Shown here: positions 2,929 through 20,972 of the stretch, one piece after another
Position numbering within the stretch: the first letter of the stretch is position 1
How the letters are laid out: the number at the start of each line of letters is the position of its first letter
From: a phage
Assembly (NCBI GenBank): GCA_031441445.1
Contig: GCA_031441445.1_4353.1
Direction: 5' to 3' (one strand)
DNA: 24,085 bases
Program-made: the position numbers and the translations under genes
Notes under the pieces: model-generated
Databases searched by the model: none
What the model was told of the DNA's origin: nothing
The model's input: only the letters and a program-made list of their open reading frames with translations

Positions 2929-4179
2929 TTAAAGTGCGAAAGTCACCGGGATGTTGATTACTGGTTTAACCACCGGCATCTCATAAACTACAGGATAGCC
3001 GAGAGCATCAGCCATATGGTCAATGACGCCGTCTTTAGCCGGCTCTCCGTTATCGTCGTATGCCTGCTGTTCCAGCGTCTTGGCTATCTCAGGACATAAG
3101 TGGTCATTAACCCACAGCTTACCTTTTTCCAGCGCGGTGTTCACGGCTAAAACGCGGTCTTTAACCGGGGGGTTGGCTGATTTAGCGCGAACATCGAAAC
3201 CCGCCTGCTGGAGTAATGCAATATCAGAGATTGACGCCGAGTTTGTCTTACGGTTCTTGCCGCTAGCGTCGGGGTAAACGACGATGCGGTGGCCTTGTGA
3301 CTTCCACTTCTCGGTAATTACGCGCACGGTGTCCGGCGTATCGAACAGGCCCTTCAGTTCTGCAACCGCGTGCCATCCATCTTTACGCTGCACATACACG
3401 GCGCTGGCGTTCTTCGTAACGTTGAAGTCCTGCCCGATGTACAGCGTGTCGCCCGGTTGAATTGTCTCTTTGCTGCGGTGCTTGCGTCGGTCGTATGCGT
3501 AATACACGCTTCCGGATGTCAGGTTGACAAACTCACCGTTCAGATACGCGTTAATCAGTTGCGCCGGGTAAGTCTCAGTCAGCGAGCTAATGTAATCCGG
3601 CGGCAGGAATCTGGCGTTCTCGTGAGTGGACGCCTGCACCATTGAGTAACTCGGCGTCGGGTTCTCCTTGAACTTGGCGTAAACGAACTTGAACCCTTCC
3701 GGAGTCGTGGTGACGGAGATGTGGTTAATTACCCCCGGGATAACCAGACGCATGCGGGCTACGATTTTGTACCACGCCAGCTCGGCTTTCTCACGGCTCA
3801 ATACGTCCAGCTCATCCACGACCGCAGCCGCGATTTTGAAGCCGACTATCGAGCCGGGGTTATCCATCGAGCGGCAGATAACAGTTCCGAGCACCGTCTT
3901 ACCGCGAGTGACCACGACTTCTTTGTCGCCAGATTTAACCAGCACATCGAGGCCGAGGAGGTTAGCCGCTTCCTCGAATGTCGGGTAGAAGATGTCGCGG
4001 ATAGCCGGGTAGGTGGGGCCGAAGTAGCCCAGGCGGGTACCCGGGTTCCGGAGCATGAACGTAAGCAGGTCGAGACAGCCGACAAATGTCTTGCCGCTAC
4101 CGAAGCCTCCGACATAGGCCTTGTATTTGTTATCGCAATTCAGGAACAGTGCCTGTGGTGCGGATAGCTGAATACTCAT
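2929..4179 (-). CDS. terminase large subunit
   Basis: 416-aa ORF with Walker A (YVGGFGSGKTFVG) and Walker B-like (AAVVDELDVL) motifs; ATG overlaps stop of upstream small ORF (ATGA); GAGGTAGAGGA RBS. Confidence 0.8.
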   Translation of the reverse strand: MSIQLSAPQALFLNCDNKYKAYVGGFGSGKTFVGCLDLLTFMLRNPGTRLGYFGPTYPAIRDIFYPTFEEAANLLGLDVLVKSGDKEVVVTRGKTVLGTVICRSMDNPGSIVGFKIAAAVVDELDVLSREKAELAWYKIVARMRLVIPGVINHISVTTTPEGFKFVYAKFKENPTPSYSMVQASTHENARFLPPDYISSLTETYPAQLINAYLNGEFVNLTSGSVYYAYDRRKHRSKETIQPGDTLYIGQDFNVTKNASAVYVQRKDGWHAVAELKGLFDTPDTVRVITEKWKSQGHRIVVYPDASGKNRKTNSASISDIALLQQAGFDVRAKSANPPVKDRVLAVNTALEKGKLWVNDHLCPEIAKTLEQQAYDDNGEPAKDGVIDHMADALGYPVVYEMPVVKPVINIPVTFAL

Positions 4180-4721
4180 TCCTCTACCTCACCCATGTTC
4201 GTTGTTACGATTTTACCTACAGGCTCCGCAACACTGAAAACAATCTCAGTCGGTGCTGGTTCTTCGGTGGATGCAACCGGTTTCTCTTTGCTGAGGCCCA
4301 GTTTAGCCGCGGCAAACGTAGCCGAGATGCCCGCAGCCCCTGTCTCAGTGAAGTATGCCTCTTCCAGCGCCTGTGCTGTCTCCCAGGCTTCTGCAAATGC
4401 GGGAATCTCACGCAGCCAAAGCTTAATAATAGGGATAGTGACGCCGATGTGTAAGGCGAAGCGGGCCAGTGACGGCGGCTTATCCTGAATCAGTGGGCGT
4501 TCACCACCCTTAGACGTTGGCACAAGCTCCCACGACGTGCGGTCGAAGAACTCGATTAACGCGTCACAGTAGTCCGGGTCCCACAATGCCGCAGAATTAC
4601 GGGATGATTGATAAAGGCTCTGTTTACCGCGCGGTCGTTTACGGCGACGGTTTGCGCTAACAGCTTCTTCATGTGCAGCTTGCACCACCTCTGGTGATGG
4701 CTGCTTAAGTTTCAGCTTCAT
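4176..4721 (-). CDS. terminase small subunit (putative)
   Basis: ORF track gives 4176..4760 with a GTG start; the in-frame ATG at 4721 (MKLKLKQ...) has an AAGGGGA RBS and is preferred. Basic N-terminus (RRRKRPRGK); stop overlaps large-terminase ATG. Assignment mostly by position. Confidence 0.55.
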   Translation of the reverse strand: MKLKLKQPSPEVVQAAHEEAVSANRRRKRPRGKQSLYQSSRNSAALWDPDYCDALIEFFDRTSWELVPTSKGGERPLIQDKPPSLARFALHIGVTIPIIKLWLREIPAFAEAWETAQALEEAYFTETGAAGISATFAAAKLGLSKEKPVASTEEPAPTEIVFSVAEPVGKIVTTNMGEVEE

Positions 4722-4786
4722 AGAATCCCCTTGCATATGCGTCTGACCATCAGAGCGCACCAGACGCGCCCTACGCGTCTAAAGTG

Positions 4787-4816
4787 ATTATATAAGGGGA
4801 TTGGGCGGGATGTACA
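4787..4816 (-). promoter_or_regulatory. candidate promoter for the packaging/late operon (TGTACA-N18-TATAAT on minus strand)
   Basis: Perfect -10 TATAAT (rc of 4787-4792) with a 4/6 -35 (rc of 4811-4816), 18-bp spacer; lies between the early-operon terminator and terS. Confidence 0.3.
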
Positions 4817-4819
4817 GAA

Positions 4820-4839
4820 AAGCCCTCCGTAGAGGGCTT
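4820..4839 (-). terminator. stem-loop terminator candidate at the early/late boundary
   Basis: 8-bp stem AAGCCCTC / GAGGGCTT with CGTA loop; on the minus strand followed by UUCUGU. Confidence 0.4.
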
Positions 4840-5028
4840 GTTGGTCAGGATATAGCTTTGAATATGAATGCTACTGTAACACGCGCGGCGAAGAACGTAA
4901 CGCAGTTCAACAACCATTGCACGACCCAATATCGCTATGGTTTAGCTGCGATCCAGTCACTTATTTTATCCAGAATATCTTTCATCTCTCGCTCTCCAAT
5001 CAGTTATACAGGCCGTATCATGGTTATT

Positions 5029-5259
5029 TTACAGCTCTACGGATGCCAGATGACTGACTGCGGCTTTAACCGCATCTTTAAGGTTGTCATACGCGGAAGT
5101 AAAAGACGTATGCGCGCCTTTTGAGACAACTGTAGCGCCGCCGTTAAAGTACGCTTTTGCTCTCCAACTACCATTTACCTTGTCAATAAGGATGTAGTGG
5201 CTACCTTCTTCCGTTACCGTAACTGTGTTTTCATCGATTACTTCAAATTTAGTATCCAT
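5029..5259 (-). CDS. hypothetical protein (76 aa)
   Basis: ORF with GAGAGAG RBS, preceded by the cassette promoter at 5305-5333; last gene of the minus-strand early operon. Confidence 0.5.
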   Translation of the reverse strand: MDTKFEVIDENTVTVTEEGSHYILIDKVNGSWRAKAYFNGGATVVSKGAHTSFTSAYDNLKDAVKAAVSHLASVEL

Positions 5260-5304
5260 ATTTGCTCTCTCTCTGTTCGTTAAATTAGTGTATGAAGCGT
5301 TTTA

Positions 5305-5333
5305 ACTATACTAGTGAACTATTCACGCGTCAA
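5305..5333 (-). promoter_or_regulatory. early promoter with operator-like palindrome (TTGACG-N17-TATAGT, minus strand)
   Basis: -35 is rc of 5328-5333, -10 is rc of 5305-5310; the spacer contains TGAATAGTTCACTAG, a near-perfect copy of the recurring AATAG-N4-CTATT palindrome. Confidence 0.5.
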
Positions 5334-5352
5334 TAACTTCTGCGTGTATGAT

Positions 5353-5508
5353 TTAGTCAGTTATATCGCCGCCGTCTACCAGTGCGATTGGTATTCTCAC
5401 TTCACCGTTGAATGTTTCGGCATACCAGAACTTTTCACACTGCGTTACGCTGAAAACATCGAGTTCTGACGTAGCCCCTGTTTTCCAGTAGATAGTTAAC
5501 TTTTTCAT
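5353..5508 (-). CDS. hypothetical small protein (51 aa, MKKLTIYWKTGATSELDVF...)
   Basis: Below the 60-aa ORF-track cutoff; its ATG overlaps the stop of the upstream ORF (ATGA), indicating translational coupling. Confidence 0.35.
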   Translation of the reverse strand: MKKLTIYWKTGATSELDVFSVTQCEKFWYAETFNGEVRIPIALVDGGDITD

Positions 5509-5741
5509 TCTCCACTCTCCTCTTTAGCAATACGTTGCTCAGTTTTAGTGATACCACGGCGCGTGAATAACACCGGGCTAGTCTTAACGTGCGTCATCAG
5601 ACGATTGTTATAAATTACGTGGCGCTCACAATCAACGTCTTTACTGTACTTAGCAATCGTCATTTCGTTGATACCGGTTTGTCGGCATGTCTCCGCCATC
5701 GTACCAAATTCTTTAATCAGGTTAGGAATGCTGGTAATCAT
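5505..5741 (-). CDS. hypothetical protein with possible helix-turn-helix (EFGTMAETCRQTGINEMTIAKYSKD)
   Basis: ORF track 5505..5765 starts at GTG; the internal ATG at 5741 overlaps the stop of the upstream 56-aa ORF (ATGA) and is preferred. Confidence 0.45.
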   Translation of the reverse strand: MITSIPNLIKEFGTMAETCRQTGINEMTIAKYSKDVDCERHVIYNNRLMTHVKTSPVLFTRRGITKTEQRIAKEESGE

Positions 5742-5908
5742 CCTAAGAAATTCCTCGTTGTCCACATCGCATTCGGGTATTTGTTATCGCGGTCCTGTAC
5801 TACGGCAATCATGTTACCGCGTTGTACCAGGCAGAAGTGCCGCTGCTGCTCGCCGTTGTAGCGACGCCAGATTGCTTCTTCGATTGCCGCGTTGATGTCG
5901 CTGAACAT
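5738..5908 (-). CDS. hypothetical small protein (56 aa, MFSDINAAIEEAIWRRYNGEQQRHF...)
   Basis: Unlisted sub-60-aa ORF; start overlaps the stop of the upstream tiny ORF (TAATG) and its stop overlaps the downstream start (ATGA). Confidence 0.35.
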   Translation of the reverse strand: MFSDINAAIEEAIWRRYNGEQQRHFCLVQRGNMIAVVQDRDNKYPNAMWTTRNFLG

Positions 5909-5991
5909 TAGTATCTACCCCACAGAAATCCAACCAACAGCCCAACGAAGTAACTAAGACCAACCAGACCGATAACCACCTCGAGACTCAT
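5908..5991 (-). CDS. tiny hydrophobic peptide (27 aa, MSLEVVIGLVGLSYFVGLLVGFLWGRY)
   Basis: Single predicted transmembrane helix; GGGGTGAGAG RBS; sits 4 nt after the upstream stop and overlaps the downstream start. Confidence 0.3.
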   Translation of the reverse strand: MSLEVVIGLVGLSYFVGLLVGFLWGRY

Positions 5992-5995
5992 ACTC

Positions 5996-6196
5996 TCACC
6001 CCACTATCTCATCACCGAGCCACGCCGTTTCTCGTATATCGGAAACCACGCAAGCGGCGTGCTCACGGCTAATTGCAAAAATGTAGAAGCTAAACTTCTT
6101 CCCGTCGGCGTCGATGTGGTTAACCGAGTATGGTTTCCACAGGACGCCATCAATAACTACCGGTTCAGGCGCTTTCATCTTCTGGTCCGACAACAT
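5996..6196 (-). CDS. hypothetical protein (66 aa)
   Basis: ORF in the coupled minus-strand early operon. Confidence 0.45.
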   Translation of the reverse strand: MLSDQKMKAPEPVVIDGVLWKPYSVNHIDADGKKFSFYIFAISREHAACVVSDIRETAWLGDEIVG

Positions 6197-6455
6197 TGTC
6201 GTACAGCGGGATTATCACATCAGCCCCATCCTTTGAAGCTGCGGTTGCCGTGTTGTAATAAGCCAGCGAAGAACTGTCTTCACCGACGAACAACCCCGCG
6301 TACACGTTCGGTTCTTGCGTCTTAATAGCCAGTAACTCCTTAAACGCCTCCAGTTGAAACTCACCGTTAATTGACAGTTGCCCGCCTAACGTCTGTTTCT
6401 CTGACTCAAGGACCAGAATACGACGCTCAAGTGACGCGATTGTGATTTTAGGCAT
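6165..6455 (-). CDS. hypothetical protein (about 96 aa)
   Basis: ORF track 6165..6464 starts at GTG; the in-frame ATG at 6455 (MPKITIASLE...) is preferred. Overlaps the stop region of the upstream small ORF. Confidence 0.45.
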   Translation of the reverse strand: MPKITIASLERRILVLESEKQTLGGQLSINGEFQLEAFKELLAIKTQEPNVYAGLFVGEDSSSLAYYNTATAASKDGADVIIPLYDNVVGPEDESA

Positions 6456-6621
6456 TGGTGTCACCTTTGTTCAGGTTGAAGCGGTTAATCAATTCACGAC
6501 GATGCTCCTGTACCACAGATAACGCCTTTTCTAATTCGGCAATCGTCTTGTCGCACTCTTCAATAGCGTACATACCTAGCGCCGACTCTACGCATGCCTT
6601 CTCGTATTCGCGGTCAGTCAT
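6448..6621 (-). CDS. hypothetical small protein (57 aa, MTDREYEKACVESALGMYAIEECDK...)
   Basis: Unlisted ORF; its ATG overlaps the stop of the upstream ORF (ATGA). Confidence 0.35.
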   Translation of the reverse strand: MTDREYEKACVESALGMYAIEECDKTIAELEKALSVVQEHRRELINRFNLNKGDTNA

Positions 6622-6776
6622 TCTTTACGCTCTCCCCACATGCGATTGAGATACTTGTTCTTGTCCGGCCCAGGGAAACTGTTACGTTTCATCAGTTCCT
6701 CGCGTGTCGGGGACGGGGTGTGGCTGACTTTACGGCCTACCCGTAGTGGTTGGCTTACTTGACCTTGTTCGCTCAT
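6618..6776 (-). CDS. hypothetical small basic protein (52 aa, MSEQGQVSQPLRVGRKVSHTPSPTREELMKRN...)
   Basis: Unlisted ORF; ATGA overlaps at both ends (with 6773..6970 upstream and 6448..6621 downstream). Confidence 0.35.
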   Translation of the reverse strand: MSEQGQVSQPLRVGRKVSHTPSPTREELMKRNSFPGPDKNKYLNRMWGERKE

Positions 6777-6970
6777 TCTACAATCTCCCATTTAACGCCG
6801 TGGAAGCCATCACCTTCATCGTTACCAAAGTCTATGAAAATACAGCAGTCGTCGTCGGAGTCTATATAACCGAAACCAGTAGCTGTCGGGTTGTATACAT
6901 CATACACTTTACCCTCTGTCACATAGTCAAGGGCGGCTAACCAGAGAATTTTAGCGGCTTTAACTTTCAT
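6773..6970 (-). CDS. hypothetical acidic protein (65 aa)
   Basis: ORF in the coupled operon; ATGA overlap with the upstream gene. Confidence 0.45.
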   Translation of the reverse strand: MKVKAAKILWLAALDYVTEGKVYDVYNPTATGFGYIDSDDDCCIFIDFGNDEGDGFHGVKWEIVE

Positions 6971-7215
6971 TTCTTCTCTCCTGCATAAGCGGACTTCAGG
7001 GTCTGCATTGCAGCGAACCAGAACGCGTCCGCAGGGATGCTATTGCTCAGGTTACTAACGGCGATGCGTGCCATCAGTTGTGCATCTTTGAATGCTTCGA
7101 TGTCTGTGATTTTCATTGGAAATTTACGCATAGCAACCGGGTCATTACCCATAGTCCATGCGATACATTTGGCTTCAAGTTCCTCGGTTATTGCGATTGT
7201 CTGTACGTTACTCAT
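6967..7215 (-). CDS. hypothetical protein (82 aa), first gene of the early operon
   Basis: ATG at 7215 with ACGGAG RBS; preceded by the promoter at 7249-7277. Confidence 0.5.
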   Translation of the reverse strand: MSNVQTIAITEELEAKCIAWTMGNDPVAMRKFPMKITDIEAFKDAQLMARIAVSNLSNSIPADAFWFAAMQTLKSAYAGEKK

Positions 7216-7248
7216 CTTCTCTACTCCGTTCTCGTTGTCGATGGAGTA

Positions 7249-7277
7249 AATATAATAGGGTCGTAGGTAATAGTCAA
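7249..7277 (-). promoter_or_regulatory. sigma70-like promoter (TTGACT-N17-TATATT) for the minus-strand early operon
   Basis: -35 is rc of 7272-7277, -10 is rc of 7249-7254, 17-bp spacer; about 30 nt upstream of ATG 7215. No operator palindrome in this copy. Confidence 0.5.
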
Positions 7278-7299
7278 CTAGTCATTGCAGAAAATAGAT

Positions 7300-7331
7300 A
7301 AAAAAAATCCCGGCTGGGTCAGGGCCGGGAT
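7300..7331 (-). terminator. rho-independent terminator (minus strand)
   Basis: 8-bp stem ATCCCGGC / GCCGGGAT (7307-7314 / 7324-7331) followed on the minus strand by eight U (A-run 7300-7307 on plus). Confidence 0.6.
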
Positions 7332-7364
7332 AAAACTGGAGAGCAGAGGTATGGAACAGGAGGT
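7300..7364 (-). ncRNA. candidate small RNA (about 65 nt) between promoter 7371-7399 and terminator 7300-7331
   Basis: Promoter, short ORF-free transcript and strong terminator in series; predicted RNA begins ...ACCUCCUGUUCC... (anti-Shine-Dalgarno-like CCUCC). Confidence 0.3.
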
Positions 7365-7370
7365 GATTTA

Positions 7371-7399
7371 AGTATCGTCGGATTAGTCTTAGGTGTCAA
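7371..7399 (-). promoter_or_regulatory. sigma70-like promoter (TTGACA-N17-GATACT) driving the candidate sRNA
   Basis: Perfect -35 (rc of 7394-7399), 17-bp spacer, -10 GATACT (rc of 7371-7376). Confidence 0.35.
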
Positions 7400-7526
7400 C
7401 AGAGATTCTCCGGCACGCGTTACCGCACTTTGGCTCGACCTTGTTACAGGTCCGCGAGGGTGATGATACCCGGAATTCCCTCAATGTTGTTTAATCTTCT
7501 GTTGCCGTTAGTCTATCAAACTACTG

Positions 7527-7559
7527 GCAAAATAAAACCCGGATTCGCGGTCCGGGTTT
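7527..7559 (-). terminator. rho-independent terminator after the lysis cassette
   Basis: 9-bp stem AAACCCGGA / TCCGGGTTT (7535-7543 / 7551-7559) with a 7-nt loop, followed on the minus strand by UAUUUUG; 38 nt downstream of the endolysin stop. Confidence 0.6.
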
Positions 7560-7596
7560 ATGGAGATGCAAGCACAAGCGGCGTATGACGATTATA

Positions 7597-8085
7597 TCAG
7601 CCTTTCACCGCGCGTCCAATAGCAACCGCCTCTTGCCACGGCTTACCGTCGAACAATGCCAGCCGCCCGGCGGTACGGCGGCGCAGGCCGAGTAACGGTT
7701 TGCCGTTCTGGTTGATGAACAGCGCCAGCTTAGCCCGCAGCGTCGCGATGTCACCAGAGCGCAGTGCCTTACCTGTACCGGTAGTAGCTGCGATAACGCC
7801 AGCGCCTGCGTTAAACACAAGGTCACACACGGCGTCGAACTGAGCCTGTGTCAGTGAGTGATGCGCTGCAGCGTCAACGGCGGCTACGGCCTTAGCCATA
7901 TCGCGATTGAGTAGCAGAAGACCCTGGCCGGGCGTGATGGTCTGCCCGGGCTTAACGTCTGGCCCGTAATGCCCGTAGCCAATAGTCAGGTACTTCTCGG
8001 CGGGTGTAGCACGATACGCAGTTCCCCGGAAGCCCTCGAACTCGGCACAAAAATGTAAGCCGTTATCTGAAATGTTTCGAGACAC
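7597..8085 (-). CDS. endolysin, GH24 lysozyme-like (T4 lysozyme / lambda R family)
   Basis: 162-aa ORF with N-terminal catalytic-region motif EFEGFRGTAYRATPAEKYLTIGYGH; GTG start at 8085 with a strong AAGGAGG RBS 8 nt upstream; follows two membrane-protein genes. Confidence 0.75.
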   Translation of the reverse strand: MSRNISDNGLHFCAEFEGFRGTAYRATPAEKYLTIGYGHYGPDVKPGQTITPGQGLLLLNRDMAKAVAAVDAAAHHSLTQAQFDAVCDLVFNAGAGVIAATTGTGKALRSGDIATLRAKLALFINQNGKPLLGLRRRTAGRLALFDGKPWQEAVAIGRAVKG

Positions 8086-9417: not shown

Positions 9418-9599
9418 TTAATGTACATACATGGAAACCCGACTCCGTAAAATTGCCATTCGTGTTCACGCTGTTTCTCCTTCCACCGTACCCACATCCG
9501 CTGAACCTCTGGTTCAGCGTAGCCATTGTCTTTCCGGGCCGGGGTGAACCCAAACCGGCTCCGGAACCATATTTCAAACTGCCGCAAAGTAAGTCTCAC
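9399..9599 (-). CDS. hypothetical protein (66 aa)
   Basis: ORF with apparent GTG start overlapping the upstream gene by 26 nt; start uncertain. Confidence 0.35.
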   Translation of the reverse strand: MRLTLRQFEIWFRSRFGFTPARKDNGYAEPEVQRMWVRWKEKQREHEWQFYGVGFPCMYIKCGLKK

Positions 9600-9759
9600 T
9601 TCCTGGTAACTTGAAGCCGTTTTCAGTTCTCACCACGTTCCACTCCATCCCGCCGTGGTACACAACCATGTCTTCTAAATCCAGGTCTATAATGGTTCCT
9701 ACTTTGAAGATGCCTTTAGTCAGTTCACTGTCTCTTTTTGTAACTTTAACTTCTAACAT
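9574..9759 (-). CDS. hypothetical protein (61 aa)
   Basis: ATG at 9759 with GAGGAAAA RBS, downstream of the cassette promoter at 9792-9820. Confidence 0.45.
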   Translation of the reverse strand: MLEVKVTKRDSELTKGIFKVGTIIDLDLEDMVVYHGGMEWNVVRTENGFKLPGSETYFAAV

Positions 9760-9791
9760 TTCGTTTTCCTCTGTCTCGTCTGTGTAAATGA

Positions 9792-9820
9792 ATAGTAGCC
9801 TATTCTATCTTAGTGTGCAA
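9792..9820 (-). promoter_or_regulatory. early promoter cassette (TTGCAC-N17-TACTAT, minus strand) with operator palindrome
   Basis: -35 is rc of 9815-9820, -10 is rc of 9792-9797; palindrome AATAG-TAGC-CTATT at 9791-9804 overlaps the -10; whole cassette to the ATG is homologous to the one at 11022-11090. Confidence 0.5.
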
Positions 9821-11024: not shown

Positions 11025-11058
11025 TTCTAAATTCCTTATGTCTCGTTTCGATAAGTGA

Positions 11059-11087
11059 ATAGTAACCTATTATGTTGGGGTGTGCAA
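11059..11087 (-). promoter_or_regulatory. early promoter cassette (TTGCAC-N17-TACTAT, minus strand) with operator palindrome
   Basis: -35 is rc of 11082-11087, -10 is rc of 11059-11064; palindrome AATAG-TAAC-CTATT at 11058-11071. Confidence 0.5.
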
Positions 11088-14618: not shown

Positions 14619-14637
14619 AAGGGGCTTTAAGCCCCTT
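14619..14637 (-). terminator. terminator hairpin for the XRE gene (possibly bidirectional)
   Basis: 7-bp stem AAGGGGC / GCCCCTT around loop TTTAA; the XRE stop codon (14627-14629) lies in the loop; followed on the minus strand by UCUUUUU. Confidence 0.5.
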
Positions 14638-14842
14638 CACCTAACGCCAGCCACTTGGCGTCTACTTCCAGAACTTCCGCCAGTTTGAACAGCGTTGCCG
14701 GGCGGACGTCCTGAGTTACTCCAAGTGCCAGTTGGTTAATCGCGCCCTGGGAAACGCCGGTCAGGGCCGCCAAACGGCGCTGGGAGATGCCGAGTTCTTT
14801 ACGGCGTTGTTCTACACGGGTGCCTAGTTCAGATGGTTGCAT
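14627..14842 (-). CDS. XRE-family (Cro/CI-type) helix-turn-helix transcriptional regulator
   Basis: 71 aa with HTH_3 signature GISQRRLAALTGVSQGAINQLALG; AAGGAG RBS; the only minus-strand gene inside the plus-strand module, with its own promoter and terminator. Confidence 0.8.
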   Translation of the reverse strand: MQPSELGTRVEQRRKELGISQRRLAALTGVSQGAINQLALGVTQDVRPATLFKLAEVLEVDAKWLALGEGA

Positions 14843-14872
14843 GTCAGTTACTCCTTAGTCAGTTGATATGTG

Positions 14873-14886
14873 AATAGTACCATATT
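14873..14886. promoter_or_regulatory. operator-like site O1 overlapping the XRE promoter -10 (AATAG-TACC-ATATT) with extended -10 TGGTACTAT
   Basis: Imperfect copy of the recurring palindrome; minus-strand TGnTACTAT (rc of 14874-14882) serves as an extended -10 for the XRE gene; the -35 is poor. Confidence 0.45.
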
Positions 14887-14906
14887 AATTATTTTAGAAA
14901 AGCCCA

Positions 14907-14935
14907 TTGACATGTGAATAGTTCGCTATTATAGT
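14907..14935 (+). promoter_or_regulatory. early promoter cassette (TTGACA-N17-TATAGT) with operator palindrome
   Basis: -35 14907-14912, -10 14930-14935; palindrome AATAG-TTCG-CTATT at 14917-14930 in the spacer; drives the operon starting at 14964. Confidence 0.55.
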
Positions 14936-14963
14936 TAGCCCATACCAAACGAGAGGGGCAGAT

Positions 14964-17527: not shown

Positions 17528-17531
17528 AGTG

Positions 17532-17560
17532 TTGACACCTGAATAGTTAGCTATTATAGT
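17532..17560 (+). promoter_or_regulatory. early promoter cassette (TTGACA-N17-TATAGT) with operator palindrome
   Basis: -35 17532-17537, -10 17555-17560; palindrome AATAG-TTAG-CTATT at 17542-17555; drives the SSB gene. Confidence 0.55.
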
Positions 17561-20698: not shown

Positions 20699-20972
20699 GG
20701 GGCGCATACAGAAATACGCAAAAGAGCGATTCGAGGCCCTCGGTGGCCTCGTTCGCAAGCTCTCCTACGAAGGACGTTCCGGCGCTCCCGACCTGCTGGT
20801 AATTCTCCCCGGCGGTATCATCTGGTTTGTCGAGGTTAAGAAAGACGAAAACACGAAGCCAGACCCGCACCAGTTACGTGAGCATGAGCGGATGCGTAAA
20901 CGCGGTGCAAATGTTTTTGTCGTTGGTTCGTTTAAACAGGTTGACGACCTAATAGCAAACTATTATAGTTAG
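20685..20972 (+). CDS. VRR-NUC domain nuclease
   Basis: 95 aa with PD-(D/E)XK core GAPDLLVILPGGIIWFVEVKK; GTGAGGGG RBS. Confidence 0.7.
   Translation: MSTPEGRIQKYAKERFEALGGLVRKLSYEGRSGAPDLLVILPGGIIWFVEVKKDENTKPDPHQLREHERMRKRGANVFVVGSFKQVDDLIANYYS
20941..20969 (+). promoter_or_regulatory. early promoter cassette (TTGACG-N17-TATAGT) with operator palindrome, inside the 3' end of the VRR-NUC gene
   Basis: -35 20941-20946, -10 20964-20969; palindrome AATAG-CAAA-CTATT at 20951-20964; downstream leader matches the cassette at 14930-14945. Confidence 0.5.

Follow-up and report, generated by a model that had tools for sequence, protein, structure and literature searches.

The nin region of phage lambda is a non-essential, delayed-early segment that has been described as a "chain of interlinked genes", and one of its products, NinH, is a Fis-like dimer or Fis mimic that binds DNA, bends it, and becomes toxic on overproduction. 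Among described systems, the lambdoid nin region (lambda ninB-ninI; P22 ninA-ninZ) appears by sequence comparison to be the closest to the locus presented here, an array of small genes on the minus strand at positions 5029-7215 of a 24,085-nt stretch of phage DNA (NCBI GenBank assembly GCA_031441445.1, contig GCA_031441445.1_4353.1). This whole stretch is referred to as the window, and its source is a Kagunavirus-type E. coli siphophage of the Guernseyvirinae. Like the nin region, the array consists of small open reading frames (ORFs) joined by ATGA-type overlaps, it seems to encode a NinH-like and a NinZ-like protein (g9 and g4, respectively), and its members are mosaic and apparently dispensable. 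We favor, with moderate confidence, the reading that the array is an accessory small-gene cassette, equivalent in Guernseyvirinae to the lambdoid nin chain, and that it belongs to a non-structural (pre-late) regulon.

Translation of the minus strand between 5029 and 7215 gave 11 intact small genes of 27-96 aa, which take up 2133 of the 2187 nt: g1 (6967-7215, 82 aa), g2 (6773-6970, 65 aa), g3 (6618-6776, 52 aa), g4 (6448-6621, 57 aa), g5 (6165-6455, 96 aa, or 99 aa if the GTG at 6464 is the start), g6 (5996-6178, 60 aa), g7 (5908-5991, 27 aa), g8 (5738-5908, 56 aa), g9 (5505-5741, 78 aa), g10 (5353-5508, 51 aa), and g11 (5029-5259, 76 aa). Of the nine junctions from g1 to g10, eight are overlaps of 1-14 nt (ATGA in five cases) and the ninth is a 4-nt gap. 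A 93-nt spacer precedes g11, and Shine-Dalgarno-like motifs are found ahead of most of the start codons in the array. An earlier note on this DNA had named six junctions as ATGA or TAATG overlaps, all of which were found (6970/6967, 6776/6773, 6621/6618, 5908, 5741/5738, and 5508/5505), and the products of 52, 57, 27, 56, and 51 aa that it listed correspond to g3, g4, g7, g8, and g10. A 12th gene, g12 (4845-4985, minus strand), lies downstream, beyond the range given in the note, and is disrupted. Alignment to the intact 46-aa coding sequence (CDS) of KMB36 (MKNILDKLSDWITAKPYRYW...AIS) identified g12 as a 46-codon small membrane-protein gene in which the window has TAG (4935-4937) in place of Tyr17; this in-frame TAG reflects a recent nonsense mutation or an error of sequencing.

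A megablast search with positions 5029-7300 matched 419 phage records, nearly all of them Salmonella and Escherichia Guernseyvirinae (Jerseyvirus and Kagunavirus), and a more sensitive blastn search with 4700-7650 matched 522 records, which were again nearly all Guernseyvirinae. The top matches were the Kagunaviruses XY2 and Bas74, with ~94% identity over ~75% of the query. In each annotated relative fetched, the array is flanked by the endolysin and small terminase subunit genes on one strand; in the window these genes lie at 7597-8085 and 4176-4760, both on the minus strand. The GenBank records of the relatives contain 7-12 "hypothetical proteins" in the array, with occasional labels of NinH, DUF2737, "Nin protein", "NinZ-like", or "RNA polymerase inhibitor".

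Promoters, terminators, and a shared inverted repeat

Positions 7190-7420 were aligned with the corresponding boundaries of 12 relatives from both genera. The array promoter P2 (7249-7277, minus strand; TTGACT-17-TATATT) matches the consensus at 10 of 12 positions with a 17-nt spacer, and transcription is predicted to start at ~7242, which gives a near-invariant leader of ~27 nt. Its hexamers are invariant in 13 Guernseyvirinae, with a variable spacer, and the equivalent promoter is annotated in phage Jersey. The promoter that the earlier note had placed at 7249-7277 is thus a predicted one with conserved core elements, and it is predicted to be usable by unmodified host RNA polymerase. Upstream of P2 lies the terminator T1 (7300-7330, minus strand), a hairpin at 7308-7330 followed by T8 at 7300-7307. 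The T1 stem is CCCGGC/GCCGGG in Kagunavirus and CCCGGTAA/TTACCGGG in Jerseyvirus, which is a compensatory change. T1 probably also terminates the lysis operon and would thereby insulate the array from it. At the other end, the array is closed by T2 (4814-4838, minus strand; AGCCCTC-tacg-GAGGGCT-TTTCTGT), which is conserved in 13 phages with all pairs formed and with one pair changed from UA to GC or GU, again a compensatory change. Since conserved terminators bound both ends, the array is a discrete unit. The 185-nt boundary block is 94-99% identical among Kagunaviruses, which is above the synonymous-site conservation of the flanking genes. A 5-bp hairpin that could hide the g1 Shine-Dalgarno motif was considered and rejected; it is weak (-2 kcal/mol) and not conserved in Jerseyvirus.

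The earlier note had also given g11 its own palindrome-bearing promoter. The promoter part of this claim stands: Pg11 is predicted at 5305-5333 on the minus strand (TTGACG-17-TATAGT), and its hexamers and an TGAATAGT core are conserved in NRG857CP3. The palindrome itself, GTGAAtagTTCAC, occurs as a single copy in the window and is not conserved in NRG857CP3, the one relative that was found to share the promoter, and it was discarded as a regulatory element in favor of an enriched repeat that overlaps it. The 8-mer TGAATAGT, which lies inside GTGAAtagTTCAC, occurs six times in the window, always in intergenic positions, vs 0.57 expected. The extended 18-mer TGAATAGTnnnCTATTAT occurs seven times with two or fewer mismatches (0.02 expected), and the 14-bp inverted repeat AMTAG-N4-CTAKT also occurs seven times (0.08 expected). 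None of 100 shuffles reached the counts of the inverted repeat or of the 18-mer.

All operator-like sites fall on a predicted promoter, where they overlap its -35, its spacer, or its -10. In the array, the sites are ACTAG-TTGA-CTATT over the P2 -35 (7269-7282) and ACTAG-N4-CTATT in the Pg11 spacer and -10 (5310-5323). Two further sites lie over the -10 of TTGCAC-17-TACTAT promoters, one at 9791-9804 ahead of a Gp54-family gene and the other at 11058-11071 ahead of the first leftward gene of a divergent control region. A match of the 18-mer with two mismatches (14871-14888) and a site at 14917-14930 are located between a leftward gene for an XRE-type helix-turn-helix (HTH) protein and rightward genes. 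The remaining sites are at 17542-17555, upstream of SSB-like and DNA polymerase genes, and at 20951-20964. The architecture of Pg11, TTGAC(A/G)-NN-(T/C)(G/T)AATAG-N4-CTA(T/G)TATAGT, is that of the promoters at 14905-14935, 17530-17560, and 20940-20970. No operator motif was found in P1, a predicted promoter between the endolysin region and T1 (7371-7399, minus strand; TTGACA-17-GATACT), or in the terminase promoter P3 (4787-4816, minus strand; TGTACA-18-TATAAT), which overlaps the T-tract of T2. The TTGAC and GATACT elements of P1 are invariant in 13 of 13 Guernseyvirinae, with a variable spacer.

The repeat is found at the P2 position in 12 of the 13 relatives' loci, with two arm types that are swapped between the genera. 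Over the complete genome of Jersey, AMTAG-N4-CTAKT occurs five times (16957, 29243, 32930, 39910, and 42338) vs 0.10 expected, and four of the five sites are inside annotated promoters, including that of the array itself and one upstream of the SSB and polymerase genes; no operator motif was present at the structural-gene promoters of Jersey. The AMTAG-N4-CTAKT sites across both genera thus look like an operator regulon. Because P2 and Pg11 carry the repeat of the promoters of replication and other small genes, the array most likely belongs to the non-structural (pre-late) regulon.

The likeliest candidate for the regulator would be the XRE/Cro-type HTH protein of 71 aa that is encoded divergently from the rightward genes (14627-14842, minus strand; PF01381 HTH_3, E 3.9e-13). 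The 120-nt intergenic region beside its gene contains two operator copies, one of which is over the gene's own -10. Its counterpart in the RNA-seq paper on the Kagunavirus K1B4 is K1B4_004 ("specific DNA binding").

In the model we propose, the host sigma-70 polymerase would start at P2 and produce one polycistronic g1-g10 mRNA, on which the overlapping stop and start codons would couple translation from gene to gene. Pg11 would add transcription of g11 and the broken g12, and T1 and T2 would separate the array from the lysis operon on one side and the terminase and structural genes on the other. The host polymerase would switch the regulon on at infection; a phage DNA-binding protein, for which the XRE-type protein is the best candidate, would then modulate it, probably by repression. 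The products, each of them dispensable by itself and exchanged horizontally, would have host or phage DNA and the membrane as their targets. The analysis shows the genes and their coding status, the mosaicism, the conserved promoters and terminators, and the enrichment of the motif; when the array is expressed, which protein regulates it and with which sign, and what the products do biochemically are inferred.

Several other features of the same leaders and boundaries were observed. ACGAGA occurs in the leaders of four operator-bearing units (7230-7236, 9773-9779, 11041-11047, and 14948-14954), ~10-20 nt 5' of the Shine-Dalgarno motif, and three of the four occurrences of AACGAGA in the window are in leaders of operator-bearing units. 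A conserved inverted repeat, AGACGCG-taggg-CGCGTCT (4762-4780, minus strand), separates the -10 of P3 from the GTG start codon of the small terminase gene; Jerseyviruses have it too, with changes, and it may form a leader hairpin or bind a protein. Between the endolysin gene and P1, the window has a segment of ~197 nt (7400-7596) with an extra terminator-like hairpin (7559-7535). This segment is partly found in Golestan, fEg-Eco06, and AV104 and is absent from NTEC3, Bas74, XY2, NRG857CP3, phiEc3, and K1H; in these six phages the endolysin stop codon is within the P1 -35 hexamer.

Transcription from P1 to T1 would yield a short RNA of ~65 nt (7300-7365, minus strand) that consists of a CU-rich 5' part of ~35 nt with an invariant CUCCUG, followed by T1. 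The predicted fold has an energy of -13.8 kcal/mol and leaves the 5' half unpaired. This RNA contains the anti-Shine-Dalgarno-like motifs CACCUCCUG, CCUCU, and CUCUCC, and RNAduplex gave energies of -29.3 and -23.9 kcal/mol for its pairing with the ribosome-binding sites (RBSs) of g7 and g12, respectively, against a background in which the mean was -11.2 and the 1st percentile -23.5. Such pairing is a lead only, since purine-rich RBSs pair with any CU-rich RNA. An Rfam search over 4600-7700 returned sub-threshold, terminator-like hits only. The P1-T1 transcript could be a phage small RNA, or just the lysis operon's 3' end together with a leader.

Gene products and mosaic content

The earlier note found none of the products recognizable, which Pfam searches and alignments showed to be wrong for g3, g4, and g9. 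The basic protein g3 matches DUF2737 (PF10930) at 37.9 bits vs a cut-off of 25, and belongs to phrog_4684; no match to it was detected within the lambda and P22 nin regions examined. g4, which is predicted to be helical, belongs to phrog_1402 and is 48% identical, over 29 aa, to P22 NinZ at the C-terminus of the latter (E 3e-4), which suggests that it is NinZ-like. The g4 of the window is a divergent allele that is merely 48-58% identical to the versions of the relatives. g9 aligned with lambda NinH (33% over 51 aa, E 2e-6) and retains the DNA-contact residues T32, K35, H45, and H55, with the changes R30 to E, N18 to T, and R56 to V. It may be described as a NinH-like HTH protein.

The acidic protein g2 (pI 4.2) is limited to Kagunavirus. 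It is predicted to form a small beta-barrel of SH3/Gp54-like shape, and the nearest structure to its model is Bas11 Gp54 (PF25180), at 7% sequence identity. The PF25180 profile matched neither g2 nor any of the 36 members of the g2 family at E values up to 1. Bas11 Gp54 is a non-essential protein that triggers the defence protein CapRelSJ46, and a possible inhibition of another defence system has been suggested by the authors of that study. At 9574-9759 on the minus strand, the window does encode a true PF25180 member ("phage antiviral trigger protein Gp54"; 61 aa, 94.3 bits, E 3.7e-27). For g2, a cold-shock domain was also considered on the basis of a run of weak Csp hits, and it was confirmed neither by hhalign (45%), nor by Pfam, nor by the fold, which is SH3-like.

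The other products are less informative. g1 (phrog_2180) has a C-terminal part of ~50 aa that is conserved subfamily-wide and a variable N-terminus; an exhaustive HMMER search of 1.84 billion proteins yielded just 11 representatives, all small and with no informative domain fusion among them. g5 is acidic and has a conserved N-terminal part of ~45 aa and a variable C-terminus, and phrog_9023 and phrog_10200 match its N-terminal half only. g6, found only in Kagunavirus, is predicted to consist of a beta-hairpin and a helix, and its family is too narrow for a deep profile. One GenBank record labels a g6 homologue as an "RNA polymerase inhibitor"; this label gained no support, as there was no Pfam or PDB hit, BLASTP against an approximate query sequence of T7 Gp2 gave E 0.17 over 20 aa, and the Gp2 fold was not the best structural match. 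g7 is a single hydrophobic helix (MSLEVVIGLVGLSYFVGLLVGFLWGRY) with a maximum 19-residue hydropathy of 2.44, and is predicted to be a membrane micro-protein. g8 (phrog_5407) is highly conserved, and tblastn detected homologues that are 44-49% identical in Gamaleyavirus (N4-like phages). g10 belongs to phrog_22569, and g11 to phrog_10134 (E 2e-47), a narrow family. All products tested except g2 fall into PHROG families of unknown function. PDB sequence searches with g1, g8, g9, and g11 gave no significant match, NCBIfam gave nothing meaningful for the array products, and PADLOC gave no match for ten products.

The gene content of the array is mosaic across the relatives. g3, g4-like genes, g9, and the C-terminal domain of g1 are present in both genera, and g2, g6, g7, and g8 only in Kagunaviruses. 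Bas74 has g1-g10, and g10 is sporadic, being found only in XY2 and Bas74 among the loci checked. g11 occurs in the Kagunavirus NRG857CP3 and in some Jerseyviruses and is absent from most Kagunaviruses; its version in the Jerseyviruses skrot and SS10 is 87% identical and lacks a promoter of its own. Metagenomic relatives of g6 (P0014, P0019, P0021, P0023, and P0026) include the in-frame fusions g5N::g6, g4N::g6, and g2N::g6, indicating that internal deletions of the array which leave open frames are tolerated in nature. On the basis of the presence/absence matrix, these natural fusions, and the nonsense codon in g12, we propose that the array products may be individually dispensable. Such mosaic content is what would be expected for accessory host-interaction genes.

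Timing, function, and coding status

The earlier note described the array as an early operon that is transcribed first. Several parts of this description are borne out, namely the discrete coupled unit, the conserved sigma-70-type promoter, the flanking terminators, and the replication-type operator; the timing is not. The array lies between the endolysin and terminase genes, and the NinH gene is classed as "middle" in the only Kagunavirus RNA-seq study, that of K1B4; a search of the literature found no Jerseyvirus transcriptome. A further observation counts as support for the note's view, the left-end location of the g8 homologues in Gamaleyavirus. In PD38 the homologue (1391-1573) is in a left-end run of small genes adjoining the phage RNA polymerase genes. 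Going by N4, we take this left-end region of PD38 and N4-like phages to be the early region. It is plausible that the array is expressed early.

Some results weigh against an accessory, nin-like cassette in a pre-late regulon. In K1B4, the "middle" class comprises the NinH gene (K1B4_023) together with lysozyme, structural, and primase/helicase genes and the XRE gene (K1B4_004), and the "early" class consists of four genes only, including the HTH_17-type K1B4_008. P22-like phages carry late-expressed accessory genes beside their packaging genes, as the array is placed here. The operator-bearing promoter at 9789 (Jersey 39893-39920) seems to feed the lysis genes as well, and the operator therefore marks non-structural, not strictly early, genes. 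With regard to the products, the match of g9 to NinH PF06322 (E 5.5e-5, 23.4 bits) is below the cut-off of 29.8, g9 lacks the key Arg30 of NinH, and no function can be inferred for 7 of the 11 products. As for the K1B4 classes, the cells were sampled at 5-120 min with a latent period of 30 min, and "middle" denotes a peak at 50-90 min; these classes span several infection cycles and are too coarse for timing.

Alternatively, the array may form the beginning of a late unit that continues into the packaging and structural genes; read-through that starts in the lysis operon or at P1 and runs on into terminase would then express it mainly late. The array is contiguous, and on the same strand, with the endolysin gene upstream and the terminase gene downstream; P22 has accessory genes (rha, orf80, and others) at the equivalent position between lysis and terminase genes; and K1B4 RNA-seq placed the NinH gene in one class with lysozyme and structural genes. 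In addition, P1 followed by a close terminator is formally similar to the lambdoid pR'-tR' unit, which needs antitermination. However, the terminators on either side of the array are conserved with compensatory changes, the array has its own conserved near-consensus promoter with an operator that is shared with replication promoters and missing from the terminase promoter, and no Q-like or N-like antiterminator was found among ten neighboring ORFs scanned. We therefore regard a late unit as unlikely and retain the pre-late cassette.

The earlier note proposed host-takeover and anti-defence functions, and the array could accordingly be an anti-defence island whose products inhibit bacterial immune systems. 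Its genes are indeed small, mosaic, lineage-restricted, and under purifying selection, g2 and g5 are strongly acidic, and the model of g2 is nearest to Bas11 Gp54, the trigger of CapRelSJ46 for which inhibition of another defence system has been suggested. Nevertheless, profile searches matched no known inhibitor family, and no product matched a known defence or anti-defence family in Pfam, NCBIfam, PHROGs, PDB, or PADLOC, a set of searches that included no dedicated anti-defence library. In the phenotyping of the BASEL collection, Kagunaviruses are reported to be highly sensitive to restriction-modification and variably sensitive to Old. Since the restriction-sensitive set includes Bas74, which has g1-g10, a broad anti-restriction function is argued against; other defence systems are not affected by this argument. 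An anti-defence island is thus a rather doubtful interpretation. We give still less credence to a more elaborate version, a regulated island for host takeover and defence interaction, in which the Cro-like XRE protein would co-repress the array with the replication genes via AATAG-N4-CTATT, g2 would be a second, sequence-unrelated Gp54-type barrel, g7 and g12 would be membrane micro-proteins, and translation would be tuned by an abundant CU-rich P1-T1 RNA of ~65 nt.

The cassette we favor presupposes that its small ORFs are genes. Selection was examined by tblastn and Nei-Gojobori counts against the loci of 11 relatives, and pN/pS was 0.00 to ~0.4 for g1, g3, the N-terminal part of g5, g6, g7, g8, g9, and g11. 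The values were 0.02-0.25 for g1, 0.04-0.33 for g3, 0.11-0.37 for g7, 0.00-0.02 for g8, and 0.16-0.19 for g11. In g8 there were 9-14 synonymous vs 0-1 non-synonymous differences, and g7 differed from that of phiEc3 by 14 synonymous and 7 non-synonymous changes. The start, frame, and stop of g7 are retained in nine of the nine Kagunaviruses that have the segment. Residues of g7 are replaced conservatively (L/I/V, G/S/A), and the one deletion, of 15 nt in AV104, is in frame. For g2 and g10 the differences were too few for a firm selection test; the g2 family is diverse (45-98% identical) and has conserved columns. These counts indicate that the small ORFs, including the 27-aa g7, are under purifying selection, with thinner data for g2 and g10. 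It is thus very improbable that the sub-60-aa ORFs are chance open frames and the longer ones alone are genes: g7 is annotated in no GenBank relative examined and neither g7 nor g12 has a PHROG family, but in g3, g7, and g8 the synonymous changes outnumber the others by far, the g7 frame is constant, g3, g4, g8, and g10 match PHROGs at E values of 1e-18 to 1e-32, and most starts are preceded by Shine-Dalgarno-like motifs.

Significance and comparison with known systems

The array is a fairly ordinary mosaic cassette that is already present in hundreds of sequenced relatives, mostly as hypothetical proteins. Guernseyvirinae are used in phage therapy and engineering, and to our knowledge their transcription is essentially unstudied. 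The present analysis provides a concrete regulatory map for the subfamily, with promoters, terminators, one operator, and one candidate regulator. It also corrects annotations: the conserved g7 is missing from the records examined, g12 is interrupted in this phage, and there is no basis for calling g6 homologues RNA polymerase inhibitors. For screens of toxicity or of interaction with defence systems in BASEL phages (for example, Bas74), compact candidates are g2, the Gp54-family gene at 9574-9759, and the nin-type genes.

In spite of its likeness to the nin region, the array differs from it in several respects. It lies between the endolysin and terminase genes, whereas nin lies between the replication genes and Q/gp23, and it has its own sigma-70 promoters and operator, whereas nin depends on N-antiterminated pR transcription. 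The phage of the array is virulent, the array has no NinB/Orf, NinG/Rap, or NinI, and g1, g2, g5-g8, g10, and g11 have no lambdoid counterpart.

The left end of N4-like phages and the class I genes of T7 are likewise dense arrays of tiny, lineage-specific genes for the first available polymerase, and homologues of g8 are part of the Gamaleyavirus array. In contrast to those phages, the phage studied here does not encode a polymerase, none of the products is homologous to a characterized takeover protein, and the timing of the array is deduced indirectly. With Bas11 Gp54 the likeness is one of predicted shape; g2 is only 7% identical to it, and neither g2 nor its 35 relatives match PF25180.

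The regulon resembles Cro/CI-type regulons such as those of lambda Cro and P1 C1 in that one short inverted repeat lies over core elements of at least seven promoters and that two copies are beside the XRE gene. It differs in that the group is virulent, with no lysogeny module seen in the window, and in that binding to the operator is here deduced from the DNA sequence. Finally, g11 has features of the morons of HK97/HK022-type phages, namely its own promoter, a downstream terminator, a G+C content below that of the terminase region, and a scattered presence. Unlike in morons, a virulent phage has no prophage expression, Pg11 carries the phage's own operator, and g11 is promoterless in Jerseyviruses. 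The disrupted g12 lies between g11 and T2. g11 thus behaves like a moron-like cassette that is wired into the phage's own regulon.

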